From contig JAGOHU010000001.1 in the NCBI GenBank assembly GCA_017995975.1, forward strand, positions 1-49,138: a stretch of 49,138 bases of DNA, written 5' to 3'. The position numbers and the translations under genes are program-made. Position 1 is the stretch's first letter. Each line of letters begins with the position of its first letter. Below, piece after piece: positions 7,316 through 48,389 of this stretch. The notes under the pieces were generated by a model. The model searched no databases. It saw only the letters and a program-made list of their open reading frames with translations, and was not told the DNA's origin. Source of the stretch: Negativicutes bacterium. GTDB taxonomy: Bacteria; Bacillota; Negativicutes; JAGOZY01.

Positions 7316-7825
7316 CTATTGTTTTGGAGCCTCTTTCTTTTCTTCCGTTGCTTTGGCTTCCTCAGCTGGTTTGGGTTCTACTTTTCCGCCTAATTTAGCG
7401 ATTACATCATCTGTAATGTCGACACTTCCAACCACCACTTGAGCTTTTGTCAAAACAATTCCCATTTTCTTTTCTTGAGCAACTTCCGTAGAAGCTTTTT
7501 GAATTCCTGTAATAAATTCAATTCCAATTTGTTTTTCTAATTCTTGAGCTCGTTTCTGAAATTCTTGTTGTTTTGCCATAAATTCTTGTTGTGCTTTCGC
7601 TGGATCCATTTTTTGCAATTCTGCTTCCAAAGCCTTGCCCTCTTCTTGCAACACTTGTTGTTGAGCAGTCGCTTTTTGAATGATCTCAGCCCCAAATTTA
7701 GATTCCTTTTGGATTCTTTCATAATCAACAACTCCGACTTTTTGGGCCTCATTGCTACAGCCTGCTACCAACAGAGTTGCTCCGATCAAAGCAGCTCCCA
7801 TCCATTTCGTTAAATTCATTTTCAT
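7316..7825 (-). CDS. skp: OmpH/Skp-like periplasmic chaperone, lipoprotein form
   Basis: 169 aa. Signal peptide with lipobox LLVAGC, then a Gln/Glu/Lys-rich coiled-coil region typical of OmpH/Skp. Immediately upstream of lpxD, as in many diderms. Confidence 0.8.
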   Translation of the reverse strand: MKMNLTKWMGAALIGATLLVAGCSNEAQKVGVVDYERIQKESKFGAEIIQKATAQQQVLQEEGKALEAELQKMDPAKAQQEFMAKQQEFQKRAQELEKQIGIEFITGIQKASTEVAQEKKMGIVLTKAQVVVGSVDITDDVIAKLGGKVEPKPAEEAKATEEKKEAPKQ

Positions 7826-7933: not shown

Positions 7934-8407
7934 TTACTTGCTATTTAAAATTTTAATGACTTCATCTGTAATATCACTACCACCATATAATACATCATCT
8001 TTAGCTACTACAACAGTGTATCCCTTTGAGTCAGCGGCCTTTTTTACAGCTCCACCAAGCTTTAGTTTCCATGCACTGGAAATATCGCTTTCACTTTTCT
8101 TTATTTTTTCAACCAACTGTTGCTCATATCTTTGTTTTTCATCAGCCGATAAAGCTGCAGCGTTTTTCTTAAAGTCTTCTTCCGCTTGCATCTGAACATC
8201 TTGGAATTGTTTCACCGCATCATTAAAATCGGTGGATTGAGAGCGTACTCGCTCCATATCTACTACCGCAACCGAACTGGCAGGAGCTGCCGAAGCTTGT
8301 CCAGTCATTGAGTTGGCGCCCATAATAAATACGCTTACTACAAAAATAGCAGCAACCGCCAAAGTAATCGTTTTCACATTTCTTGGATTTCTAAGCCACA
8401 TCATCAT
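7934..8407 (-). CDS. OmpH/Skp-like periplasmic chaperone, second paralog (signal peptide, no lipobox)
   Basis: OmpH-like coiled-coil sequence (FQDVQMQAEEDFKKNAAALSADEKQRYEQQLVEKIKK). Start placed at the ATG cluster 8 nt after GGAGG; the track ORF begins 18 nt further upstream at 8425. Confidence 0.75.
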   Translation of the reverse strand: MMMWLRNPRNVKTITLAVAAIFVVSVFIMGANSMTGQASAAPASSVAVVDMERVRSQSTDFNDAVKQFQDVQMQAEEDFKKNAAALSADEKQRYEQQLVEKIKKSESDISSAWKLKLGGAVKKAADSKGYTVVVAKDDVLYGGSDITDEVIKILNSK

Positions 8408-8449
8408 TATAAAATTCCTCCACATCTATTCTCCAATATTACTAGGATT

Positions 8450-16541: not shown

Positions 16542-17876
16542 TTAAAAACGTTGCCGAATTCCAAAATAAGTCGAACTGGCCCGATCTTTCCCATAAATTT
16601 GTCCAAAAATCGATGTGGTGTCCGTCACATCGTATTCACCCCGGACTCGATATTTAAAATCATTTGGATCGTATCCATCCACACTTACTTTAAGACGTTT
16701 AGATGCTTGCCAATCCACCCCAACTCCCAGCCGGGACTCAAATACCCCAGCTCGAAATCCGATTGGCCCTTTCCAAGTTCCACCTTGAAGCTCGAAATGG
16801 TTCTCTTCACCGATATCCTGAGCACCAATACGTATATATCGATCTCCGCCAATTGAGACATTTGCATCACCACGCCAATCCTTTTCATCAGCCGAATAGG
16901 ACATTTCTGCTCCGCCCTCGAAAAAGTTTCGAGAGCTAGTTTGCTTTTTTCCTACCCCGGTGCCTTTATCGCTTCCACTTGATTTATTACCACCCAAAAG
17001 TTGGTTGATTTTTGCACTGGTCTCACTAGCATTACGGATTGTCGCTTTCACATCCGCGATGGTATTCGGATCTGTAGCCATTCCTTCCACCGAAGCCGTG
17101 ATTTTATCCATTCGAGCTATGACGCTTTTCATATCTGACAACATTTGCCGAATATCTTCGGCTCCTTTTCCGTTATCATCTACTGTAGCGAGCATACGAT
17201 TTGCAGTCCCCACTACTTGACGCATATCATCTGAAGTGGCCCGTAGATTTTGGACAATCGCCCTCATATCACCTTCACTACCACTGCTCATTCGATTTAA
17301 ACTCTCAGTTGCCATACGCAAATTATCTGTAATCAAACCCATATTTCTAATGGCCGTTTTAATTGCAATTTTAGTTTCTTCTGATCCAGCAATTTCATTT
17401 ACATTACCCACAGTCTGCTCTAATTGGCTGACTAATCGATTTGCAGAAACCATCATATCATCAATGCTAGGTCGAGAAGTTCCTTCAAGCTTCGAACCAG
17501 GAGGCAAAAAATCCTTGTTTACCTCCTCAGGTGGTTGAATTGCCACATACTTAGAACCCACCAAGCCCTCGGTTCCGAGAGAAACAAGGGACCCTTTCGG
17601 CACCTTCACTCCCGGGTCCATCTTTAGGGTAACACTAATCCCGTGAGGCATTAGTTCAATTTTCTCGACTTTACCGGCTCGAATTCCTGCATAACGAACC
17701 TGGTTACCTACCCCTAAGCCGTCAGCAGTTTTAAAAAAGACTTGGAGGGTGTAGCCCCGATTGCCCGATAAATCAATATCTGCAATAAAAATACCTAGTG
17801 CAACAACTACTGCTAACCCAATCAAAGTAAATATGCCTACTTTGATCTCTATCTGTCGACTACTATTTTCCTGCAC
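16542..17876 (-). CDS. mlaD: MlaD (MCE-domain) protein, long form with helical stalk and beta-rich OMP-like C-terminal module
   Basis: 444 aa. N-terminal TM, MCE domain (residues about 38-115), about 180 aa of predicted coiled-coil, a Gly/Ser/Lys linker, then about 128 beta-rich residues ending YFGIRQRF. GTG start with GGAGG SD, overlapping the end of mlaF by 14 nt. Confidence 0.85.
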   Translation of the reverse strand: MQENSSRQIEIKVGIFTLIGLAVVVALGIFIADIDLSGNRGYTLQVFFKTADGLGVGNQVRYAGIRAGKVEKIELMPHGISVTLKMDPGVKVPKGSLVSLGTEGLVGSKYVAIQPPEEVNKDFLPPGSKLEGTSRPSIDDMMVSANRLVSQLEQTVGNVNEIAGSEETKIAIKTAIRNMGLITDNLRMATESLNRMSSGSEGDMRAIVQNLRATSDDMRQVVGTANRMLATVDDNGKGAEDIRQMLSDMKSVIARMDKITASVEGMATDPNTIADVKATIRNASETSAKINQLLGGNKSSGSDKGTGVGKKQTSSRNFFEGGAEMSYSADEKDWRGDANVSIGGDRYIRIGAQDIGEENHFELQGGTWKGPIGFRAGVFESRLGVGVDWQASKRLKVSVDGYDPNDFKYRVRGEYDVTDTTSIFGQIYGKDRASSTYFGIRQRF

Positions 17877-18654
17877 TACTTACCCCTCCTTTTTCATTTT
17901 GATAACCAACTAAACCATATTCTAAAAATTGTTGGACTTCCGGATGAGAACTGCGAACAAATTCTTCTTTCGTACCAATTTCAGTAATTTCACCATTATA
18001 AAGCATGGCAATCCGGTCAGCACTTCGGAAAACTCCTGGCATATCATGAGTCACCATAATCGAAGTTACACCCAAAGTTTCTTTCGTTTTTACGATTAAC
18101 TCGTCAATTTGCTTTGATATAACCGGGTCTAGCCCAGATGTCGGTTCGTCATACAATACCAATGGTGGGTTTGCTGCAAGAGCCCGGGCCAAACTTACTC
18201 GTTTTTTCATACCCCCTGAAAGCTCAGATGGCATTTTGGACTCTACCCCTTCGAGCCCGACAAGCCGTAATTTCTCGGTTACAATTTGTCGAATTTTTTC
18301 CTCTGGCAATTTCAGGTGTTGTCGTAAGGCAAACCCCACATTATGTTCCACATCCATCGAATCAAAAAGAGCTGAATACTGAAATACCATGCCCATTTTT
18401 AACCGAATGTCATTCAATTCTTGATAATTTATTTGAGTTAAATTAGTTCCTTCAACCCAGATGTTCCCAGTTGTAGGCTTCAAAAGTCCAATAATCAATC
18501 GAAGTAAAGTACTTTTTCCAGTCCCCGAAGGACCTATCACTGCAAGAGTTTCTCCTTCGTAAACCTCTAAATTAATATGTTTTAATATTTCTTTTCGCCC
18601 AAAAGCAAGGGAAACATCTTCCAATCGAACAATTACTTTTTTTTCTGCTGTCAT
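17863..18654 (-). CDS. mlaF: Phospholipid ABC transporter ATP-binding protein MlaF
   Basis: Walker A GPSGTGKST, ABC signature LSGGMKKR, Walker B LVLYDEPTSGLD. Start set at ATG 18654 (MTAEKKVIVRLEDV); the track ORF starts at an upstream TTG. Confidence 0.9.
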   Translation of the reverse strand: MTAEKKVIVRLEDVSLAFGRKEILKHINLEVYEGETLAVIGPSGTGKSTLLRLIIGLLKPTTGNIWVEGTNLTQINYQELNDIRLKMGMVFQYSALFDSMDVEHNVGFALRQHLKLPEEKIRQIVTEKLRLVGLEGVESKMPSELSGGMKKRVSLARALAANPPLVLYDEPTSGLDPVISKQIDELIVKTKETLGVTSIMVTHDMPGVFRSADRIAMLYNGEITEIGTKEEFVRSSHPEVQQFLEYGLVGYQNEKGGVSSAGK

Positions 18655-18682
18655 GTTTCTCCCCACTTTCAAAATATCTCAC

Positions 18683-19444
18683 TCAAAAGATAAGTACTGA
18701 TAAGAAATAATTACTAATAAAAATTAAGATGATCGAATGAACCACCGATTCAGTAGTCGCTACTCCTACACCTTCTGCACCGGTTTTGGCATTCATTCCA
18801 TGATAGCAACCTACTAAAGCAATAATAAAGCCAAAAAAGATTCCCTTAATCAAGCCGCCATATAAATCTTTCACTGTTGCAAAGTCTTTAATGGATTGCA
18901 TATAAACAGCACTATTAATATCTGTGTAATTGCTCGCTACAAAATAGCCACCCAAAGAGCCAATCGCATCGGAAAATCCTACCAGAATTGGCAACATAAC
19001 CATACAGGCCAGCACCCGAGGCAAGACCAGATAAGAGACTGGCGGAGTTGCCATGACTTCCAAAGCATCCAATTGTTCGGTCACCTTCATAGAGCCAATC
19101 TCCGCAGTAATTGCGGCTCCAACTCGCCCTGCGACCGTAACGCCTGTCATAATCGGAGCCAACTCTCTCGCTAGTGCAATAAAGACAGCACCACCTGCTA
19201 CGCTTTGAGCACCAAACTCAACAAATTTAGCTGCCAATTGATAAGTCATAACCATACCCATAAATACCGAAATAATTGTCACAATCAAAATCGAATCCAC
19301 CCCGAGCTTCGAAGCTTGATACAAAGTTCGATTCCAATTAAATTGCGGAAGAGCTCGAAAGGTTTGCATTGTCAGACTAGATAACGCACCCACATAGGCA
19401 ATCATAAAAATGACTCGTTCTCCAAAAGCTGCAAAAAAATTCAT
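18683..19444 (-). CDS. mlaE: Phospholipid ABC transporter permease MlaE
   Basis: 253 aa polytopic membrane protein of the MlaE/Ttg2B family, adjacent to mlaF and mlaD. Strong GGAGGGG SD. Confidence 0.88.
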   Translation of the reverse strand: MNFFAAFGERVIFMIAYVGALSSLTMQTFRALPQFNWNRTLYQASKLGVDSILIVTIISVFMGMVMTYQLAAKFVEFGAQSVAGGAVFIALARELAPIMTGVTVAGRVGAAITAEIGSMKVTEQLDALEVMATPPVSYLVLPRVLACMVMLPILVGFSDAIGSLGGYFVASNYTDINSAVYMQSIKDFATVKDLYGGLIKGIFFGFIIALVGCYHGMNAKTGAEGVGVATTESVVHSIILIFISNYFLSVLIF

Positions 19445-19478: not shown

Positions 19479-21437
19479 TTATTTCTTAGGAGCTGATGAG
19501 GCTTTTGGTTTTTTGACTTTCACTTCCACATAGCTATCTCCATAAATAATCCAAGGCTTAATTTTTCTCAACTTAAAAGAGCTCTCGTACATTTGAATAT
19601 CATCGGTACTACCCATACTTTTTTCCTCAAGCGGAGTAAGTCCAGTAGCTTGACGATTATCCTGAGCTTTGCGAAGTTTCTCTTTATCTTTCTCCGTTGG
19701 AACAAAATATCCTTCTAAAATAAGGTCTTGGCTATGATTTAATCCTAAATAAGTATTCACTAAATCTTTCAAATCCTTAGGAGCAAGCCAACGTTCCTTC
19801 TCAAGATAGACGATCTGGCTCACCACTTCCTTCGGCATCTCGTCGCCAGTCAAATAGCTCGCCCCACCTCGTACCAAAACAAACCAATTTCCTGGGGTTG
19901 CATAAGGAGGAATTGTATATTTAATTTTCTCAATCACTCGTTTCTCTCGGTAGGGTTGCATCTCTACTTCGACTTCAATCGTTTCACCCGGATAAGCCTC
20001 TTTTATCGGTGAAGCGGCTCGGATGATTTGGGCTAACTTCTTTTCCTCCGTCAAATTGATTTTCACTTCGATTTCATCTAACTCAACTTTTTCAAAAGGG
20101 TTAACATTTAATAAACCCAGCGCAAAATCCAATTCATTAATCGAAACCTCTGCAAGATTCTTGGACCCATAAAGCATTGCTGATCGAGTAACTTGCCCAT
20201 TGGGTAAATTTTTCCCTTTTAAGGTCATCTGAACAAACGCGGTCCCACCAGCTTCCCGATCCATCACTTGATCAATCCCGCTATAAATGCTAGCCGGCAC
20301 AAGAGCGGAGGTCAGTTTTTCATGCTGAACCACATCAAATTTCAATGATTTCTCTACTTTTCCCGACATATCAATCACAGTAAGCTTCACTTGAGTGGTC
20401 TTAGGAAAAAGTCGCAACTGTCCGCTAATTCCAGCTTGGCGATCCTGATCAATCATCCCTAGGGTATTGCCTAAAGTACCTAATTTAAAAGCCGAATTAA
20501 CACTCGGTATCACCCCAATGACTTCAGCACTTGTCATAAAATAAGAACTCTCGCCACCATGGATAAAAGGATGTCCAAAAGCAATCACCTTACCATCTTC
20601 CACCCAGGTAACAGTCCCTAAAGCTCCCATATTCACATCACCTTTGACGAATTGAGCTCCAATCGGACTCCCAGGTGCCAATGTTCCACTGGTGTTACTG
20701 GAACCGCTACCAGTCTCATAAGGAATGAGATTCAGAGGCTCTAATTTTTTACGTAAAAAGTCCATCGCTCTTGGAGTCATTCCACTCACCAGCAAAGGAG
20801 TCGCCAAAGGTCGAATCCCACCCTCGGGCAAACTAACTTCTGGCAATTGAGTATCTCCAGAGGAGGATTTCTTATTGTCTCCCTCAGAAGAAGGCTCAGC
20901 CTTTTCTTTCATTTGTCGAATTTCCGGAAGAGGTGCCTTAAAAATCTCTCCCCAACGGGCTTCCTCTGATTCATAGGGAGTAATCACATTTTGCCAATCA
21001 CTGATATCCACAATAGGTGATTTAGGTAAAAAACCATGAGGTAAATCCCAAAGCTTCACCATATCTTCCGCTGGGGTCAAAAGCCCCAATCGAGCATCCG
21101 AAAAGCCCCAACCATAAGCGACCGCTCCAACTAAACGTCCATCAATCATCACTGGGCTTCCACTCATCCCCTGAGCAATTCCACCAGTCTTATCAATCAA
21201 AGGTCCCGAAACTCTGACTAAAATCAAGTTTTCCACCGGCCCCTGCTTTTTCAAAACACCCAGAATTTCCACAGAAAAATCTTCGATTTTCGTGCCTTGA
21301 ACAACGGTCTTCCCTGTACCAACCATACCAGCTCGCAATTCACTCACTGGCATTACAGGTACAGCGGCTTCTGAAAAAGCACAAAAAAAGCAAAAAAACA
21401 CTAACATTCCAAAAAAAACTCTGTCTCGCGCTTGCAT
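19479..21437 (-). CDS. Secreted SpoIVB-like peptidase S55 domain protein with a long C-terminal extension
   Basis: 652 aa with a signal peptide. SpoIVB-type Ser motif GGIAQGMSGSPVMIDGRLVGAV at residues about 85-106. SpoIVB-type His motif AFGHPF at about 286-291. No PDZ domain recognised. Confidence 0.8.
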   Translation of the reverse strand: MQARDRVFFGMLVFFCFFCAFSEAAVPVMPVSELRAGMVGTGKTVVQGTKIEDFSVEILGVLKKQGPVENLILVRVSGPLIDKTGGIAQGMSGSPVMIDGRLVGAVAYGWGFSDARLGLLTPAEDMVKLWDLPHGFLPKSPIVDISDWQNVITPYESEEARWGEIFKAPLPEIRQMKEKAEPSSEGDNKKSSSGDTQLPEVSLPEGGIRPLATPLLVSGMTPRAMDFLRKKLEPLNLIPYETGSGSSNTSGTLAPGSPIGAQFVKGDVNMGALGTVTWVEDGKVIAFGHPFIHGGESSYFMTSAEVIGVIPSVNSAFKLGTLGNTLGMIDQDRQAGISGQLRLFPKTTQVKLTVIDMSGKVEKSLKFDVVQHEKLTSALVPASIYSGIDQVMDREAGGTAFVQMTLKGKNLPNGQVTRSAMLYGSKNLAEVSINELDFALGLLNVNPFEKVELDEIEVKINLTEEKKLAQIIRAASPIKEAYPGETIEVEVEMQPYREKRVIEKIKYTIPPYATPGNWFVLVRGGASYLTGDEMPKEVVSQIVYLEKERWLAPKDLKDLVNTYLGLNHSQDLILEGYFVPTEKDKEKLRKAQDNRQATGLTPLEEKSMGSTDDIQMYESSFKLRKIKPWIIYGDSYVEVKVKKPKASSAPKK

Positions 21438-21548: not shown

Positions 21549-21860
21549 TTAAGGATTTTGAGATTCAACCTTAACAACGATTTGTCCAGTCTTGACTGAT
21601 TGTCCTGGGGTCACCAGCACTTCCGTTACCACTCCAGTCACCTTTGCACGCGAAGTTGGAGCCACACCTGTCAAGGTCTCAACACTCACTAGTACTTGTC
21701 CTTCTTGTACTGTATCATTGACTTTGACAAGCCCTTGAGCAGCCACTTTGCCATTTAAAACAGCCGAGTGATCAATCACACCTGCAGCAAAAACAACCAT
21801 CGTTATAGATAAAGCAAGTATTGCAAACAAACTCGCCACTTTTATTCTAAAATTTTTCAT
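21549..21860 (-). CDS. Small secreted or membrane-anchored protein with a biotinyl/lipoyl-like (barrel-sandwich) domain, no biotinylation lysine
   Basis: Trimmed to MKNFRIKVASLFAILALSITMVVFA..., with GGAGGTGG SD. C-terminal VKVNDTVQEGQVLVSVETL...GVVTEVLVTPGQSVKTGQIVVKVE resembles a lipoyl/biotinyl hybrid-motif fold but lacks an (A/E)MKM motif. Confidence 0.65.
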   Translation of the reverse strand: MKNFRIKVASLFAILALSITMVVFAAGVIDHSAVLNGKVAAQGLVKVNDTVQEGQVLVSVETLTGVAPTSRAKVTGVVTEVLVTPGQSVKTGQIVVKVESQNP

Positions 21861-21906: not shown

Positions 21907-23310
21907 TTATCGTGAACTCTTTCGAGGAATAATAATGATCGAACTTCCAACTGATCTTTCGGCTCCGTCAGAAGGTTTATTTTTGATTTTTTGATTGACT
22001 ACCATCTCGCTCGATCCACCACCATCAAGGTTCATCGCATTATAAATACCCATTTTATTCAGGAAGTCCGCCAACTCAGTCAAGCTCATCCCAACACTCT
22101 GCCAAGACCTACCATCCACTACAATCAGCCAAACCGTACCATCTTTCATCTCTCCAATCGCAGTCCGTGGTGCCCGCCCCACCGAGATATCGCTTGGAAA
22201 GGCTTCTTGTTTAGAAGTCACATTTACTTTACCATTTTCAATCAAGCGAGGGCCAGCACCAATCACGTGGGTAGCTCGATCCCATTTCGGATCGATCAAA
22301 TGCTCTACAGTGACCTTGTCGCCTGGCACCAAGTAGCTAATCATATCCTTTTCTTGACCATGAGCCGAAAGAACCCAATCGCCTTTGTTAATCAGACTAT
22401 TTTCAGATTTTCGTTCAATAATCTGTCCTTTGGAAATTCCTAGCTCTAGTCCCCATTGGTTGGTTCTTGTCTTCGTTCCTTGTCTCGAATTATAAAGTAC
22501 TGCTTGATTTTCGCCTCGAGGAATATTAATTCCACCGATCTTCATTGACCAGTCTGGAATCGTATCCACAGAAAATTTGCCACGATAGCCCAAAGTACCC
22601 ACAATATTCTTGCCTTCTTTGGTAAAGCCCCAAGCAGTTCGTTCTTGCGGGTCTCCGGTCACCCATTCTCCATTAATTTTTAAATTTCCCAAATATTGGC
22701 CAGCCCAGCTAAAGTACCCCCCATTGACACCGGCAATCGCATTATACCGTTTGGTCATACTACTGACCACTTCTAGATTGCCCATCTTATCCCAAGCCAA
22801 AATCGGAACAATGTCTCCAGCCCCTGGTTCAATTTGAACAATATGAACTCGAACCGATGAACTGCCTAAAGGGAATTTATGATATTGATACTCAATTCCT
22901 TTAGTCAATTTTTCCGACCGTTCCACTCGAGCTGGCTCATCAATATCCACTACAAAACGATTTGGATTTTTCAAAGTCATAGTGCGCCAGTTTGTCGGTT
23001 CTTTTAAAATAATCTTCAGCTCGACTCCATCAGGCTGCTTAAAAACCTCTACAGATTTTGCATAGCCTCCCAACTCCATGATTGTAGGTAAATCGACTTT
23101 CACTTCCCCTGGAATAAAGAAGGTCAGTTCTGTTTTGCTCGGGTTGGCCTCTTGAGTCACTTTGGCCATATCGCCTTCGATATCCACTACCAATCGCAGA
23201 TAATTATCATCTACCTGATATCGAACTGCCTTAATTTCTGCTGCTTCCACAGAAATCATCATCAAAAGCAAACACCCAAGCACCAATCCTAAGAGATTAC
23301 GAAATTTCAC
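21907..23310 (-). CDS. AMIN-domain plus phosphodiester glycosidase (DUF2233/NAGPA-like) envelope protein
   Basis: Trimmed to a GTG start 9 nt after AAGGAGG (VKFRNLLGLVLGCLLLMMIS...), because the longer track ORF overlaps mreB. AMIN-like segment IKAVRYQVDDNYLRLVVDI...NPNRFVVDID. DUF2233 signatures GVNGGYF and AMNLDGGGSS. Confidence 0.8.
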   Translation of the reverse strand: MKFRNLLGLVLGCLLLMMISVEAAEIKAVRYQVDDNYLRLVVDIEGDMAKVTQEANPSKTELTFFIPGEVKVDLPTIMELGGYAKSVEVFKQPDGVELKIILKEPTNWRTMTLKNPNRFVVDIDEPARVERSEKLTKGIEYQYHKFPLGSSSVRVHIVQIEPGAGDIVPILAWDKMGNLEVVSSMTKRYNAIAGVNGGYFSWAGQYLGNLKINGEWVTGDPQERTAWGFTKEGKNIVGTLGYRGKFSVDTIPDWSMKIGGINIPRGENQAVLYNSRQGTKTRTNQWGLELGISKGQIIERKSENSLINKGDWVLSAHGQEKDMISYLVPGDKVTVEHLIDPKWDRATHVIGAGPRLIENGKVNVTSKQEAFPSDISVGRAPRTAIGEMKDGTVWLIVVDGRSWQSVGMSLTELADFLNKMGIYNAMNLDGGGSSEMVVNQKIKNKPSDGAERSVGSSIIIIPRKSSR

Positions 23311-23326
23311 AGCACCAATCCTCCTT

Positions 23327-23353
23327 AAAAAAACAAGGCGGAATATCCGCCTT
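23327..23353 (-). terminator. Intrinsic terminator-like hairpin directly after mreB
   Basis: Minus strand reads AAGGCGGA-TAT-TCCGCCTT, then G and T7. The U-tract is immediately followed by the AAGGAGG SD of the AMIN/DUF2233 gene. Confidence 0.6.
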
Positions 23354-23356
23354 ATC

Positions 23357-24394
23357 TTAACGTCTACGACGCCGTAACTGCATAATGCCTTCTTGCAATA
23401 TATCCAAGCTATCGAGAGCTTTGCCCGAACCAAGAGCCACACAAGCTAACGGATCCTCTGCAATGACAACCGGGATACCTGTTTCTTCGCTAATCACCTG
23501 GTCTATTTTATGGAGAAGCGCCCCACCGCCAGTGATCACAATCCCCCGATCAATAATATCCGCCGACAATTCGGGAGGGGTAGTCTCTAGCACAAGCTTC
23601 ACAGCTCCCACAATCAGCCCAATACTCTCGGAAATCGCCTGATAAACATCACCCGAAGTCATCCGAATCACTCTCGGCAATCCACTGACCAGGTCTCGGC
23701 CCCGAATATCAAAGCTATCACTTCGTCCGTTAAGCTTTGCTGTACCAATTTGAATTTTCAATTTTTCGGCGGTTTGCTCCCCGATTAGCAAATTATGTTC
23801 TTTTTTCACATAGCGGACAATCGAATCGTCAAACCGATCGCCACCGACACGAATACTTTCGCTTTTCACGATGCCCCCTAAACTGAGTACCGCAATATCA
23901 GTCGTACCGCCACCAATATCAATGATCATATTTCCCCTTGGCTCTTGAATATCAATCCCAGCTCCGAGTGCAGCCGCCAAAGGCTCTTCGATCAAATAGA
24001 CTTTCCCGCCCCCCGCTTCGGCAGTCGCTTCCAACACAGCTCGTCTTTCAACATCCGTGACCCCAGAAGGAATACACATCATAATACGAGGTTTTTGAAA
24101 ACTATTTTTACCAATTACTTTTTTTACAAAGTACTGAATCATATTTGACGTCGCATCATAATCAGCGATAGCTCCCTCACGCAGAGGTCTTACTGCAGTG
24201 ATATTTCCGGGAGTTCTCCCTAACATATTGCGAGCTTCCACTCCCAAAGCTACGATTTTTTTACTACCGGTTTCCATAGCAATCACCGAAGGCTCGTTCA
24301 AAACAATTCCTTGGTCTTTAACATAAACTAATACATTGGTCGTACCCAAATCAATCGCCACATCTTGTTTTTTCAAGAAACTGAAAAGGCTCAT
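23357..24394 (-). CDS. mreB: Rod-shape-determining actin homolog MreB/Mbl
   Basis: Actin-fold motifs AIDLGTTNVLVY, DIGGGTTDIAVLS and VITGGGALL. Start at ATG 24394 with AAGGAG SD; the track ORF extends into murA. Confidence 0.93.
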   Translation of the reverse strand: MSLFSFLKKQDVAIDLGTTNVLVYVKDQGIVLNEPSVIAMETGSKKIVALGVEARNMLGRTPGNITAVRPLREGAIADYDATSNMIQYFVKKVIGKNSFQKPRIMMCIPSGVTDVERRAVLEATAEAGGGKVYLIEEPLAAALGAGIDIQEPRGNMIIDIGGGTTDIAVLSLGGIVKSESIRVGGDRFDDSIVRYVKKEHNLLIGEQTAEKLKIQIGTAKLNGRSDSFDIRGRDLVSGLPRVIRMTSGDVYQAISESIGLIVGAVKLVLETTPPELSADIIDRGIVITGGGALLHKIDQVISEETGIPVVIAEDPLACVALGSGKALDSLDILQEGIMQLRRRRR

Positions 24395-32296: not shown

Positions 32297-32647
32297 CTAC
32301 TCCCACCAACAATAAATCAAAAGGAGCGGATAAAAAATAGCAAACCCTATCAGTGTCCAACTCAATTGCAGTATTGGTAAAAAATAACCAAGCGAAAGTG
32401 CAAAAGCAACAATCGGCAACCGTAGACCTGACAAGATTTGCAAAAACAGGTGAATCTTATCTCCATAAGACTTCGCTGTAAGTACCAACAAGAGCAGGTA
32501 TATTAAAGATAGGGTTCCACCATAAAAAACACTGAATGCAGCAAATTTTTCATCGAAAAACCAGCCTACCAACCCAAGAAGAGCTGTAAGGACAAATAAA
32601 TAAATCAAAAATTTCTTCCAATGACGAGGGAATCCAAAAGAATTCAC
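32297..32647 (-). CDS. atpI: ATP synthase protein I (AtpI-like small membrane protein)
   Basis: 116 aa, four hydrophobic segments, immediately upstream of atpB. GTG start with GGAGG SD. Confidence 0.7.
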   Translation of the reverse strand: MNSFGFPRHWKKFLIYLFVLTALLGLVGWFFDEKFAAFSVFYGGTLSLIYLLLLVLTAKSYGDKIHLFLQILSGLRLPIVAFALSLGYFLPILQLSWTLIGFAIFYPLLLIYCWWE

Positions 32648-35192: not shown

Positions 35193-35858
35193 TTACTCTG
35201 CGATCCGATAAGGTTCGCAATAGCCTCTTTTTATAAGTTTTTCAATATGCTCTTCCAGCATCAAAGATAAATTTAATTGATATTGATCTGCCAACAAATA
35301 CATCATCGTAAAGCAGCATTGAGCAATATCCAATAATTCAAACACCGCACCTTCCCAAGCTTTCGGATCTTGCAACTCTTCCTTTTCTCCCGAAGCCCCA
35401 GTACCTTTGCCTAAAAACTGAGTCAATTCGCCAAATTCTTCTTGAATTTTCGCCACGGTGAGCAAAAGAGTCAATCCGGGAATCTTAAGCTTAGGTAGTT
35501 TGAGTAATTTCCAATTTCCTTTACTTGTTACTTGATAATCTTCCGTTTCTTCATAAGAATAACCTTTTTCTCGCAATTTCAACAAATGAACTTTTACCAG
35601 TTCATCTACTTGGATTCCTTTTTCTGATTCAAAAACAAAAATCATGGTTACACAAGTTTGGCCCACATCTAAAAGTTCGCTAGCAATTCGATGAATCGTC
35701 TCTCCGGTTGCCTCTTTTTTTTCTTCTTGATCTACCAAGCAAAGAATCTCTCGAGACAATTCTCCCGCTTCCTCAATCCCTTTTAGCAAAGTTGAGAAAA
35801 GAGTTGGTTGAATCTTTGTCAATCGAGGCAGTCGGATTGTATCTGCTAGAAAATCCAT
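35193..35858 (-). CDS. Protein with two tandem MazG-like (all-alpha NTP pyrophosphohydrolase) repeats
   Basis: Repeat 1 is LLKGIEEAGELSREI...ASELLDVGQTCVTMIF...LREKGY. Repeat 2 is KIQEEFGELTQFL...VFELLDIAQCCFTMMY...LIKRGY. Start at ATG 35858 (AGAGGA SD), because the extended -10 at 35906-35914 would put the transcript start downstream of the track ATG at 35903. Confidence 0.65.
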   Translation of the reverse strand: MDFLADTIRLPRLTKIQPTLFSTLLKGIEEAGELSREILCLVDQEEKKEATGETIHRIASELLDVGQTCVTMIFVFESEKGIQVDELVKVHLLKLREKGYSYEETEDYQVTSKGNWKLLKLPKLKIPGLTLLLTVAKIQEEFGELTQFLGKGTGASGEKEELQDPKAWEGAVFELLDIAQCCFTMMYLLADQYQLNLSLMLEEHIEKLIKRGYCEPYRIAE

Positions 35859-35905
35859 TTTTGTCCTCTTTCTTTTCAATTCAAAATTGAGTCTATTCCT
35901 CATAG

Positions 35906-44931: not shown

Positions 44932-45795
44932 CTAATCAAATAAACTTGTTTGCTCTTCCGATTTCCCAGCTTCGACTACTTTAGGTAGCGGAGGCATTTT
45001 GGCAACCCCTTCTCTCGGCCAGTCAAACACAGCTACTAAGGGTGCATGATCCGATGGCTTTTCTTTCCCTCGAAATTCTCTCAACACATAAGAATCAGTC
45101 GAACAGGCAGCTAAGGCAGGAGTTGCCCAAATATGGTCAATCCGCCATCCTAAATTTCTTTCAAATCCATTGATCCCTCGATAATCCCAAAAGGTAAATT
45201 CATCTGTACCAGTACGGAATTTGCGGAAGATATCTTCCCAACCCCAGCTCATCAAATCAGTCATGATTTTTCGTTCTTCCGGATGAAAGCCAACCGAACC
45301 AGCCAAACGCTTCGGATCATGCACATCAAAATCACCTACTGCTACATTTAAGTCACCTAACCAAATCCAAGGCTGATCTGGATTGCCAAAAAAGTTCCAG
45401 TAATTTTTCATTTGTTTGAGCCAGCCCAATTTATAAAACCATGGCTCTGTGTCCACTTCACGGCCTTGGGGTACATAGGAATTCACCACGCGAACCCCAT
45501 CAATTGTGGCAGAAATTAAGCGTGCTTCTCCTGGTAGCTCCCAACCACCGCTGCCAAAGCGTACATCTTCCAGAGGCAAAGTAGAGGCGATCGCTACTCC
45601 GTTGTAGCTTTTTTCGCCTTTGAATGCCACATGATAGTTACGCTCTTCAAACCACTCAAGAGGAAATTTATCATCCATCACTTTGGTTTCTTGCAAAGCA
45701 ATCACCGTAGGTTTTTCTTTTTCCAAAAGTTCGTCCAAAGCCTCAAGTCGACTACGGATCGAATTTACATTGTAAGTAATAATTTTAAAGCTCAT
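44932..45795 (-). CDS. xth: Exodeoxyribonuclease III (AP endonuclease, EEP family)
   Basis: MSFKIITYNVNSIRSR, LQETK and the C-terminal PSDHAP. ATG 45795 follows AAGGAGG and overlaps the upstream stop (ATGA). Confidence 0.92.
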   Translation of the reverse strand: MSFKIITYNVNSIRSRLEALDELLEKEKPTVIALQETKVMDDKFPLEWFEERNYHVAFKGEKSYNGVAIASTLPLEDVRFGSGGWELPGEARLISATIDGVRVVNSYVPQGREVDTEPWFYKLGWLKQMKNYWNFFGNPDQPWIWLGDLNVAVGDFDVHDPKRLAGSVGFHPEERKIMTDLMSWGWEDIFRKFRTGTDEFTFWDYRGINGFERNLGWRIDHIWATPALAACSTDSYVLREFRGKEKPSDHAPLVAVFDWPREGVAKMPPLPKVVEAGKSEEQTSLFD

Positions 45796-46604
45796 TTCAT
45801 TTCCTCCTTCCAATAAGGAACTACTTGGCAAATTTCAGCTGACGGGACTGTTTGTTGTATTTTTTTTACAAATCGCGACAAGCTCAATTCTTCTTGATCC
45901 GCTTCAGTAAGTAACTCAAAAAGAGCTTCCCATTCACAAATTCCATTAATCATATGAATCTGTTTGGGCTGGTGACTTTCTAAGAAATTTACCAATCCTT
46001 CAACTTCATGAGCCGAATTCGAAATTCCTGGAACATAGTGAATCACCACTGCCGACTCAGTTGGGAGATTTTCAACTCGGGATAATCCCATTATTTTTTG
46101 AAGCTCCCCACGATAGCTAAACCAATGAACTTCTGGTAATTCTTCTGAAATGGGATTCTTCACTCGACTAGCAGCCACCCAATTTTGATTCTGCCAACAG
46201 GTTAAAGCCCCATAAGCTAGCGGAGGCAACGATTCTTCTCCTTTGGCTGAGCTATCAAAAGCTGATAAAGCATTCAAAATATATCCTTCAGGCAATACTG
46301 CACCTACCGCCGTCATAGGCAAAGGCAATATTTCAATTTCATCTTTTTTCCACAACATCGGCTTTCGGCTCGGCAACGAATACAAAACGCTGTCTTTATT
46401 CAAAGGCAAAAGTTCTTGAGGTTCTAACGGAGCAATCTTAATCCCTTTTCTACCTAATGCTCGATAGCCAGGAATATCATAAAGGCTTCCTTCTATATCT
46501 CCATAAAGAGGACGAGGATAGCCGACACTTTCAAACTTTGGAAGCTCTCTTCCTTTTTTTTCAGTCCCTTTTTTACTCGGACTTTTCTGTTGCTTGTTCT
46601 TCAT
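45792..46604 (-). CDS. Hypothetical protein with a Lys-rich N-terminal tail
   Basis: 270 aa from ATG 46604 (289 aa in the track ORF, from 46661). No family recognised. Translationally coupled to xth, and its 5' end overlaps the pth 3' tail. Confidence 0.6.
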   Translation of the reverse strand: MKNKQQKSPSKKGTEKKGRELPKFESVGYPRPLYGDIEGSLYDIPGYRALGRKGIKIAPLEPQELLPLNKDSVLYSLPSRKPMLWKKDEIEILPLPMTAVGAVLPEGYILNALSAFDSSAKGEESLPPLAYGALTCWQNQNWVAASRVKNPISEELPEVHWFSYRGELQKIMGLSRVENLPTESAVVIHYVPGISNSAHEVEGLVNFLESHQPKQIHMINGICEWEALFELLTEADQEELSLSRFVKKIQQTVPSAEICQVVPYWKEEMK

Positions 46605-47205
46605 CGTTCTTTTCTTTCCTTGCCTTTTTTTCTTCTTTTTTATTTCGTCGATGAATATCATTCATCACATTGCTCAGTTCTTCTTTCACAAACCGCTCTG
46701 CTGCCTCGGCGGCTAATCCAATCGCTTCTTTAAACAGAGGTGCCTCTTCTTCGGTGGGACGAGACAACACATAGTCTGGTACCTTCCAGCCCGTCGGCGG
46801 CCGTCCGATTCCCATCCGAATTCGGGGAAAATCCTCAGCTCCCAAGCGCTGGATAATTGAGGTCATTCCCCTTTGTCCACCGGATGAGCCATTTTTCCGA
46901 ATCCGTACTTGCCCAGCTGGCAAATCAAGATCATCATAAATAACAATCAAATCTTCTAAAGGAACCTTAAAAAAATGAAGCAATGGTTGTACCGCATCGC
47001 CACTTAGATTCATAAAAGTCTGAGGCATCACCAAAAGAACTTTTTCAGCACCAATACGAATCTCCCCAACACTAGCATTGTATTGATCTTTCCAATTAGT
47101 CACCTTAAACTTTTCTGCCAAAGCTTCGATCACCCAAAAGCCTGCATTATGCCTTGTATTCACATATTCTCTGCCCGGATTCCCCAAGCCTACGATTACT
47201 TTCAT
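46573..47205 (-). CDS. pth: Peptidyl-tRNA hydrolase with a charged C-terminal extension
   Basis: MKVIVGLGNPGREYVNTRHNAGF and the rest of the Pth core, followed by about 25 extra Lys/Glu-rich residues. Confidence 0.94.
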   Translation of the reverse strand: MKVIVGLGNPGREYVNTRHNAGFWVIEALAEKFKVTNWKDQYNASVGEIRIGAEKVLLVMPQTFMNLSGDAVQPLLHFFKVPLEDLIVIYDDLDLPAGQVRIRKNGSSGGQRGMTSIIQRLGAEDFPRIRMGIGRPPTGWKVPDYVLSRPTEEEAPLFKEAIGLAAEAAERFVKEELSNVMNDIHRRNKKEEKKARKEKNDEEQATEKSE

Positions 47206-47813: not shown

Positions 47814-48356
47814 CTAATAAGCTTTGTCGATTAAATCTGGACTTAAAAATACTCCTGACCCTGGCTCGGAATACCAATTATTAAATCCATAGAATTGTGT
47901 CCACCCTATTTTTTTACTCTTATGATCTTTTGCCATAATCCACAAATCACTAGTTATTTTTATTTTGTTACTGTTCAACTGAACAGAAAATATCTTATCG
48001 AAATTCCCATAATCTGCCCAAACAGAATAGAATCCTTCGCCATCATAGTACAAAAAATAAATCGTACTATCTTCTGTTGAAATCTGTTTACTTTGATAAG
48101 GATAGGTATGAAGTTGAGACCCCATAGCAGTAGCTGTATTATCTTTTTTTAAAATAAAAGCAACCTCACTATCAGAAGACGGTTCTTGGTAGAAAATAAC
48201 ATCCATTTTAGGTTTCATCCATTTTTTCCCTGCAGTTATGTCAAAATTCACTTCTCCATTTAACTTATTTGGTATTATTAATTTGGCTGGTGGTGATGAC
48301 GCAAAAGAAACTGAAGCAAATATCATAACAACAAAGATCAAAAAGATTTTTTTCAA
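47814..48356 (-). CDS. Secreted hypothetical protein (AT-rich gene)
   Basis: Signal peptide KKIFLIFVVMIFASVSFASS, then an aromatic-rich, beta-looking sequence. No family recognised. Start either TTG 48356 or GTG 48374. By eye it is clearly more AT-rich than the flanking genes. Confidence 0.6.
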   Translation of the reverse strand: MKKIFLIFVVMIFASVSFASSPPAKLIIPNKLNGEVNFDITAGKKWMKPKMDVIFYQEPSSDSEVAFILKKDNTATAMGSQLHTYPYQSKQISTEDSTIYFLYYDGEGFYSVWADYGNFDKIFSVQLNSNKIKITSDLWIMAKDHKSKKIGWTQFYGFNNWYSEPGSGVFLSPDLIDKAY

Positions 48357-48389
48357 CTCACTCACTCCTCCCACTCTTAGGACACAGGG

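Follow-up and report, generated by a model that had tools for sequence, protein, structure and literature searches.

A SpoIVB-like S55 protein with apparently swapped protease barrels in the outer-membrane gene cluster of a Negativicutes bacterium

The window analysed here is a stretch of 49,138 nucleotides from a Negativicutes bacterium (assembly GCA_017995975.1, contig JAGOHU010000001.1, positions 1 to 49,138), and its gene at 19479..21437 on the minus strand encodes S55L, a protein of 652 residues that resembles the peptidase SpoIVB of family S55. We consider that S55L is probably, at a rough probability of 0.7, a permuted envelope protease of the SpoIVB lineage that belongs to the outer-membrane cluster of diderm Firmicutes; for the topology on its own, a circular permutation at the boundary between the two barrels of the fold, our confidence is distinctly higher. 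What defines a protease clan is its fold, together with the order in which the catalytic residues follow one another along the chain. In S55L this order is Ser92, His289 and Asp332, and the PA-clan order of His, Asp and Ser is absent. A sequence-only reading of the same DNA had noticed the inverted motifs and had left two explanations, a circularly permuted fold or a Ser-bearing half-domain followed by a Ser-less domain. The first is supported by the gain in profile score when the usual order is restored, by profile-profile placement, by two coevolving residue pairs and by the invariance of S92, H289 and D332; the second found no support.

The reading frame of S55L begins with ATG and cannot be extended upstream, because an in-frame stop lies two codons 5' of the start; a database protein (P0001) is 100% identical to it. 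Histidines are found at residues 134, 289, 293, 372 and 568, none of them N-terminal to S92. Residues 85-106 read GGIAQGMSGSPVMIDGRLVGAV (nt 21120-21185) and residues 271-292 read GALGTVTWVEDGKVIAFGHPFI (nt 20562-20627). The layout of the gene is given below, together with the confidence of the AlphaFold2 (AF2) model, expressed as predicted local distance difference test (pLDDT), where it was used.

19479..21437, minus strand: whole gene, S55-like protease (S55L) of 652 residues, open reading frame (ORF) with ATG start
21366..21437, minus strand: signal peptide, residues 1-24 (MQARDRVFFGMLVFFCFFCAFSEA), a hydrophobic N-terminus ending in SEA, with a predicted helix at 2-21
21045..21365, minus strand: Ser barrel and following helix, residues 25-131, six strands plus helix 123-131, from PF05580, 9lnf, hhalign and Foldseek
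21153..21185, minus strand: nucleophile loop GGIAQGMSGSP, residues 85-95, from conservation and alignment with SpoIVB S378; S92 codon at 21162-21164
20823..21032, minus strand: low-complexity linker, residues 136-205, predicted disordered (pLDDT 43-59), of varying length across the family
20685..20822, minus strand: small alpha/beta insert, residues 206-251 (strand 213-218, helix 222-235, strand 237-241)
20403..20684, minus strand: putative His/Asp barrel, residues 252-345, six predicted strands, from conservation, hhalign and the PF05580 gain on fusion
20637-20639, 20571-20573 and 20442-20444, minus strand: codons of D267, H289 and D332 in the His/Asp barrel
19482..20402, minus strand: C-terminal region, residues 346-652, beta-rich domains and helices, AF2 pLDDT mostly >90

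Judging from its N-terminal sequence, the protein would be cleaved at residue 24. The variation in linker length appears as alignment gaps and as homologue matches split into two stretches. Residues 346-652 gave no match in Pfam, in PDB sequences (including a profile search) or, at confident level, in Foldseek; Pfam searches with the separate pieces 206-465 and 450-652 returned nothing credible, and besides S55 no PDZ, Trypsin_2 or other Pfam domain was detected anywhere in the protein. The sequence-only reading had given S55L a signal peptide and 652 residues, had placed the two motifs at residues 85-106 and 271-292, and had stated that no His precedes the Ser motif (the first being residue 134), that a PDZ domain is missing and that about 300 C-terminal residues belong to no recognised family. 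All of this was confirmed, respectively by the ORF and its hydrophobic N-terminus, by the translation, by the stop codon that excludes an upstream start, and by the agreement of the Pfam, PDB-sequence and Foldseek scans.

The S55 profile PF05580 covers only residues 24-108 of S55L, which correspond to profile positions 108-192 of 210 and so to the half with the nucleophile, at the C-terminal end of the model (61.2 bits, where the cutoff is 25). This comparison of profile coordinates, suggested earlier as a check, returned a single match on the Ser half and no collinear His upstream of it. The SpoIVB equivalog TIGR02860 scored 56 bits, against a cutoff of 305. Likewise, residues 307-395 of the SpoIVB structure in the PDB (9lnf) align with S55L residues 21-109 only, at 33% identity, and hhalign matched the Ser barrel to the C-terminal barrel of SpoIVB (E=1.5e-20) and found nothing against the N-terminal barrel. 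In Foldseek searches of the PDB, the probability was ~1.0 to SpoIVB, MarP (Rv3671c), DegP, DegQ, AlgW and MucD, with ~105-118 columns each; coverage of a single barrel is what an aligner that depends on sequence order would give for a permuted two-barrel fold. In the S55/PA fold, residues 25-131 correspond to the C-terminal barrel with its terminal helix. Of the two barrels that characterise the PA clan, the Ser barrel was matched by Foldseek, and the His barrel has six predicted strands and no Foldseek match.

Evidence that the His/Asp barrel may be the missing first half of S55 comes in part from a de-permutation test, in which the Ser barrel alone was compared with a construct carrying the His segment (residues 252-345 or their equivalents) fused in front of it, and with the same fusion made with a reversed His segment. 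Five family members, with a mutual identity of only 30-40%, were scored on PF05580. The bit scores are listed in the order Ser barrel alone, de-permuted construct and reversed control.

S55L (query): 57.9, 69.4, 57.0
P0014: 52.6, 65.5, 51.3
P0089: 49.2, 55.6, 48.5
P0341: 38.6, 44.1, 37.1
P0272: 43.4, 50.8, 42.0

De-permutation raised the score in all five members, by 5.5-12.9 bits, and in three of the five the construct became a single collinear match running from profile positions 13-16 to 192-210 and so covering the domain almost completely. The reversed controls lost about 1 bit, and none of them reached past profile position 108.

The His barrel was also compared with SpoIVB itself, represented by the full 9lnf sequence (confirmed against the PDB) and 120 true SpoIVBs; the full sequence replaced an 89-residue fragment of 9lnf, which as a query had fetched only short C-terminal fragments without the His barrel. 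The SpoIVB set is narrow (75-98% identity), and the power of the profile is therefore limited. With a profile of 267 S55L sequences, hhalign placed residues 269-343 of S55L on SpoIVB 214-301 over 75 columns (score 18.5, P=0.011), a score that tops 30 of 30 reversed or shuffled controls (maximum 17.8), and it found no match between the His barrel and the C-terminal barrel of SpoIVB. The de-permuted profile aligned with SpoIVB over 184 collinear columns and scored 123, whereas the Ser barrel by itself scored 113. In these alignments H289 falls on SpoIVB H236, D267 on the invariant D213, S92 on S378 and D332 on N290. The His segment ends in GISGQL, exactly at the end of the first barrel of SpoIVB (GIFGTL), and the SpoIVB sequence past the inter-barrel junction (GIFGTL / HQP) aligns with the start of S55L after the signal peptide.

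A full-length AF2 model built on 120 homologues has a mean pLDDT of 83.6 and a predicted template modelling score (pTM) of 0.80. It contains six strands and a terminal helix in residues 39-131, a disordered stretch (137-192), the alpha/beta insert (213-241), six strands in residues 258-341, and then beta-rich and helical domains up to the C-terminus. As a substitute for distances in the model, mean-field direct coupling analysis (DCA) was applied to 345 sequences (effective number ~200). The analysis is informative, because it recovers the beta-hairpin registers of the model (S55-S77, V96-V106, V284-M301 and V306-G320). Its top coupling overall, V217-M270, indicates that the alpha/beta insert packs on the His barrel. 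The second-strongest coupling in the two-barrel region, A88-A316 (score 5.0), is an inter-barrel one, between a residue four positions before the nucleophile and a residue in the His barrel. The covariation of this pair is size-compensating, as Ala88 occurs with Ser, Pro or Ala at 316, and Val, Leu or Ile at 88 with Gly316, a pattern typical of direct packing. Another inter-barrel coupling, L129-G336 (2.7), connects the helix after the Ser barrel with a residue four positions after D332. For comparison, the maximum was 0.9-1.42 when the halves were shuffled between sequences, and 1.72 in a phylogeny-preserving control in which the Ser barrel was paired with other domains of the same protein. 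Near the catalytic loops, Q89-A286, L102-T277 and three other pairs exceed the shuffled null and stay below the stricter control, and no weight is placed on them.

These couplings bear on the second explanation, in which an orphan Ser half-domain would be followed by a complete, Ser-less S55 domain with a degenerate barrel at about residues 346-450, the whole being a pseudo-protease with an extra half-domain. A short motif echo between LIDKTGG and VMDREAG speaks for this explanation, but DCA ties the N-terminal Ser barrel to the His barrel, and when residues 24-135 and 340-455 were compared as profiles, 7 columns aligned, with a probability of <1%. Moreover, residues 347-450 are predicted to form four strands and two long helices and no six-stranded barrel, and S92 is invariant, which is unexpected for an unused nucleophile. 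We regard a Ser-less second domain as very improbable. Internal duplication was also rejected, the profile-profile comparison being negative for these segments as well as for other domain pairs.

Several observations weigh against the permutation as such. Compared with a single SpoIVB, or by means of the 120-sequence profile, the His barrel gives a non-significant result (E~0.15), and the homology indicated by hhalign is modest by itself, with a marginal P of ~0.01. The His region alone has no Pfam match. When residues 197-652 were modelled by AF2 without the Ser barrel (pLDDT 87.4, pTM 0.85), Foldseek found no PA-clan protease in the top 50, and the His barrel is for this reason without independent structural confirmation. 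Finally, of the ~7 inter-barrel pairs above the shuffled null, only 2 beat the phylogeny-preserving control. The marginal hhalign significance and the negative Pfam and Foldseek searches would also suit a protein without true permutation, in which an S55 Ser half-domain is combined with an unrelated, recruited beta-domain that supplies His and Asp, so that the active site is merely analogous. Against such recruitment stand the gain on de-permutation in every member scored, with none in the reversed controls; the specificity of the match to the N-terminal barrel of SpoIVB, which is collinear and puts H289 on H236 and D267 on D213; and the fact that the His segment stops exactly at the inter-barrel junction. 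Recruitment of a foreign domain appears unlikely to us, and there is moderate evidence that the His barrel is homologous to the first half of S55, the N-terminal barrel of the S55/PA fold.

Conservation was computed over 267 diverse S55L members that are otherwise only 30-40% identical. S92 is kept in 265 of 265 non-gap sequences, H289, D332 and R333 in 267 of 267, and D267 in 263 of 267, while G90, M91, S92, G93, S94 and P95 are all invariant or near-invariant. The third residue of the triad is most likely D332, which would lie just before the last strand of the barrel, in the usual place of the PA-clan Asp. The spacing from H289 to D332 is 43 residues and resembles that of chymotrypsin, in which His57 and Asp102 are 45 residues apart. 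The position aligned with D332, N290 of SpoIVB, is an invariant Asn in the sampled SpoIVBs. The authors of 9lnf reported that the previously proposed Asp363 of SpoIVB is 24 A from His236 (PMC12502668), and the pairings D332/N290 and D267/D213 may bear on which residue, if any, completes the non-canonical triad of that enzyme.

The same conservation is relevant to a further alternative, namely that S55L has kept a protease-like fold but no activity, and serves the outer-membrane machinery as a scaffold or adaptor. Recovery with BamA and in outer-membrane fractions, described below, is compatible with a structural role, and SpoIVB itself is without a canonical third triad residue. However, pseudo-enzymes normally lose their catalytic residues, whereas S92, H289, D332 and the whole GMSGSP loop are kept across the 267 members. 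An inactive scaffold is, in our estimation, quite unlikely.

S55L belongs to a large family. Among the candidates examined, >5,400 proteins were found at E<=1e-3, and an exhaustive search of 50%-identity representatives yielded 9,763 at E<=1e-3 and 3,389 at E<=1e-30; the lower-scoring tier will include true SpoIVBs that match via the Ser barrel. The architecture of S55L is not a product of chance, because it is common to more than 5,400 homologues. Every member examined has the N-terminal, second-half-only S55 match, including forms of 1,342-1,484 residues, and the only database names for the family are "SpoIVB peptidase S55 domain-containing protein", "peptidase SpoIVB" and "hypothetical". 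In reference genomes there are at least 590 loci, from which taxa and synteny were recorded for the best 80. These 80 come from Negativicutes of all three orders and from one metagenome-assembled genome (MAG) of Halanaerobiales. The family occurs both in sporulating taxa (Sporomusa, Pelosinus) and in non-sporulating ones (Dialister, Megasphaera, Acidaminococcus, Phascolarctobacterium, Veillonellaceae).

In most of the best 80 loci the genes lie on one strand in the order MurA-MreB-(NAGPA)-lipoyl-like-S55L-MlaE-MlaF-MlaD-TolC-TamB, an order also seen in locus L083; the survey of orthologs and synteny proposed earlier has in this way shown that the placement in the outer-membrane cluster is kept. 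In four loci, L021 (the Halanaerobiales MAG), L033, L073 and L085, S55L stands directly before TamB(-BamA) with no Mla genes between, and this adjacency may be the ancestral core arrangement. S55L follows flagellar FlgF/G/A/H/I genes in L085, and L073 holds two consecutive S55L matches, perhaps the parts of a split gene or copies in tandem.

Such a distribution has to be considered together with the possibility that S55L is a divergent SpoIVB orthologue in sporulation signalling, for which it can be said that SpoIVB/S55 is the only named family match. But the TIGR02860 score lies far below its cutoff (56 vs 305) and a PDZ domain is lacking; the family is present in the non-sporulating Veillonellaceae, Dialister, Megasphaera and Acidaminococcus; its synteny is fixed in the outer-membrane cluster; and the window is without sporulation genes. 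We give this possibility close to no weight.

Some members depart from the common pattern. The proteins of the P0341/P0348/P0385 type (1,342-1,484 residues) carry a Reg_prop-type beta-propeller and Ig-like (Big) domains at the C-terminus, and the loci L081 (8001-12284) and L084 (8001-11424) are grouped with them. The P0341 locus adjoins a Wza-type polysaccharide exporter and glycosyltransferases, not the Mla/TamB cluster. In L084 a gene of its own, immediately downstream, encodes the propeller, an arrangement that points to fusion or fission. Two MAGs labelled Acholeplasmataceae (L062, L063) show the order MurA-MreB-NAGPA-lipoyl-S55L-MlaEFD(-TolC-TamB), and a MAG labelled "Bacilli" (L027) has MreB-NAGPA-S55L up to the contig end; these three are probably mislabelled, misbinned or from unrecognised diderm lineages.

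In the window itself, the minus strand carries, in order, LpxB, LpxI, LpxA, FabZ, LpxC, LpxL-like, LpxD, two copies of Skp, BamA, TamB, TolC, MlaD, MlaF, MlaE, S55L, lipoyl-like, NAGPA+AMIN, MreB, MurA and the ATP synthase operon. Relative to S55L, MlaE, MlaF, MlaD, TolC, TamB and BamA are downstream, and the lipoyl-like, NAGPA/AMIN, MreB and MurA genes are upstream. No sporulation gene was found among the genes of the window. The outer-membrane neighbours named in the sequence-only reading were thus borne out by a Pfam scan, and its remark that no sporulation genes flank murA-mreB holds for the whole window. The nearest neighbours are as follows.

16542..19444, minus strand: mlaE-mlaF-mlaD (Pfam), downstream of S55L, after a 34-nt gap from the S55L stop
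21549..21860, minus strand: lipoyl-like small protein, with a signal/anchor sequence and a biotin/lipoyl-like domain (PF00364)
21907-23442, minus strand: NAGPA (phosphodiester glycosidase, formerly DUF2233) plus AMIN-domain protein

A scan for promoters and terminators around S55L, including the gap between S55L and mlaE, gave no signal above the shuffled expectation, and co-transcription of S55L with mlaE is plausible. The lipoyl-like protein, read from MKNF, has ~104 residues and one biotin/lipoyl-like domain; the mechanical ORF reaches back to a TTG at position 21950. Its gene is directly upstream of S55L in most Negativicute loci, with a gene call of 102 residues in L083, and its product could be a partner of S55L. 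The NAGPA+AMIN gene probably corresponds to Vpar_0519, whose product belongs to the outer-membrane proteome of V. parvula. With the listed GTG start the gene would overlap the end of mreB, and the true start is probably further downstream; the gene is missing from Dialister and Megasphaera loci. Elsewhere in the window, tandem genes for Skp/OmpH chaperones (7316-7825 and 7934-8425, minus strand) lie between LpxD and BamA, and four ORFs of 116-289 residues on the minus strand (32297-32647, 35193-35903, 45792-46661 and 47814-48374) have no Pfam match at E<=1e-5 and are set among housekeeping genes (ATP synthase, UDP-GlcNAc 2-epimerase, SHMT, RF1, Pth).

Proteins of the S55L type have already appeared in proteomic work. 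Poppleton et al. (2017) found Vpar_0521 in each of their three outer-membrane preparations from V. parvula. They reported a SpoIVB domain at its N-terminus, a DUF1090 at its C-terminus and conservation in diderm Firmicutes, and left its role open; membership of an S55L-type gene in the outer-membrane cluster has thereby been published (PMC5491611). Vpar_0521 is very likely the orthologue of S55L, because the order of the locus tags Vpar_0519 (DUF2233 = NAGPA), Vpar_0521 and Vpar_0525 (TolC) mirrors the NAGPA-lipoyl-S55L-MlaEFD-TolC order of the window. In a 2026 study of Acetonema longum, only two proteins were found in a cross-linked anti-BamA co-immunoprecipitation, one of them the S55-domain protein F7NM31 (PMC13018214). 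The accession F7NM31 belongs to the same run as those of SonA (F7NM22) and SonB (F7NM24), both encoded in the outer-membrane cluster, at the distance that the gene order of the window predicts.

Synteny, the detection of Vpar_0521 in the outer membrane and the co-immunoprecipitation of F7NM31 together favour an envelope role over a sporulation role, as the earlier reading had argued. This functional side has its own counterweights: F7NM31 was recovered with 3 peptides (PMC13018214); the orthology of F7NM31 and Vpar_0521 with S55L, although likely, is drawn from gene order, accession order and annotation and not from sequences; and the role of S55L is deduced from synteny and proteomic co-occurrence. 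Searches of the literature found no function assigned to S55L-type proteins and no follow-up on Vpar_0521. They also found no description of a permuted S55 or PA-clan fold, although structure-classification databases may still mention one. What appears to be new is the permuted topology of the catalytic domain; the gene family and its association with the envelope were already known.

With SpoIVB of B. subtilis (MEROPS S55, PF05580, 9lnf), S55L shares the Ser barrel (33% identity, E~1e-16 to 1e-20), the nucleophile loop GGI.QGMSG.P, and the His-barrel motifs G.GT.T...A.GH and G.I..[DN]...GI.G.L. It differs in the order of its barrels (Ser, His, Asp, whereas in SpoIVB His comes before Ser), in having no PDZ domain (true SpoIVBs carry PF17820, PF00595 and PF13180), in its ~300 unrelated C-terminal residues, in its invariant D332 in place of the invariant N290, and in its location in an outer-membrane cluster without link to sporulation, with a score far below the equivalog cutoff. 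The S1C proteases HtrA, DegP, DegQ, AlgW and MucD, as well as MarP, are exported PA-clan serine proteases acting on envelope proteins, and one of their barrels matches S55L; in contrast to them, S55L aligns by one barrel in sequence order, is without PDZ and has another catalytic order, and it shows no detectable sequence similarity to them beyond the GxSGxP region. As with these enzymes, processing or quality control in the envelope is the most plausible type of function for S55L. Vpar_0521 and F7NM31 share with S55L the annotation "peptidase S55 domain-containing" and the gene position in the diderm-Firmicute outer-membrane cluster, but their published descriptions give an N-terminal SpoIVB domain only and mention neither the permuted topology nor the downstream His/Asp barrel.

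Under the permutation model, S55L would belong to the SpoIVB lineage (S55, PA clan) and work as a serine endopeptidase exported by Sec, with its two barrels in swapped order. After the signal peptide would come the barrel that is normally C-terminal, with S92 in GMSGSP and the terminal helix (residues 25-131), and then a flexible linker of ~70 residues and the small alpha/beta insert, the disordered residues 136-205 bridging the two original termini. Next would come residues 252-345, normally the N-terminal barrel, with H289 and most likely D332. The two barrels would pack together, rebuilding the S92-H289-D332 active site at their interface, with an oxyanion hole formed by the GMSG loop; coevolution, the invariance of the residues and the high pTM of the model are consistent with packing into a PA-like active site. 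The ~300 C-terminal residues would replace the PDZ domain of SpoIVB and HtrA, and they probably bind substrates or partners. The most likely site of action of S55L is the periplasm, on or close to the outer membrane, with envelope proteins as its substrates, and synteny and the two proteomic observations suggest processing or quality control around the BAM/TAM/Mla machinery as a possible task.

If this reading is true, thousands of related proteins share a fixed permutation for which, as far as could be found, there is no earlier description. Clan definitions would then have a textbook-level exception in a large natural family whose barrels are swapped and whose Ser, His and Asp are invariant, and this family would offer a natural experiment on the assembly of the chymotrypsin fold. 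The difference between D332 and the Asn of SpoIVB also bears on the third catalytic residue of SpoIVB, a question that arose with the crystal structure of 2025.

The outer-membrane machinery of diderm Firmicutes is without the accessory proteins known from Proteobacteria. In A. longum, the 2026 study found almost no BamA partners (PMC13018214). S55L is among the small number of conserved but unexplained members of the outer-membrane cluster; it is present in outer-membrane fractions and possibly co-purifies with BamA. It might be, for example, a missing processing or quality-control partner of the accessory-free BAM machinery of diderm Firmicutes. The most far-reaching form of the proposal, in which S55L is at once a natural circular permutation of the chymotrypsin fold with the order Ser-His-Asp, an active protease and a core, BamA/TamB-associated factor of outer-membrane biogenesis, is rather doubtful at this stage. 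Seen as a complete and probably active protease, and not as an N-terminal SpoIVB domain plus an unknown part, S55L would give rise to concrete, testable hypotheses.

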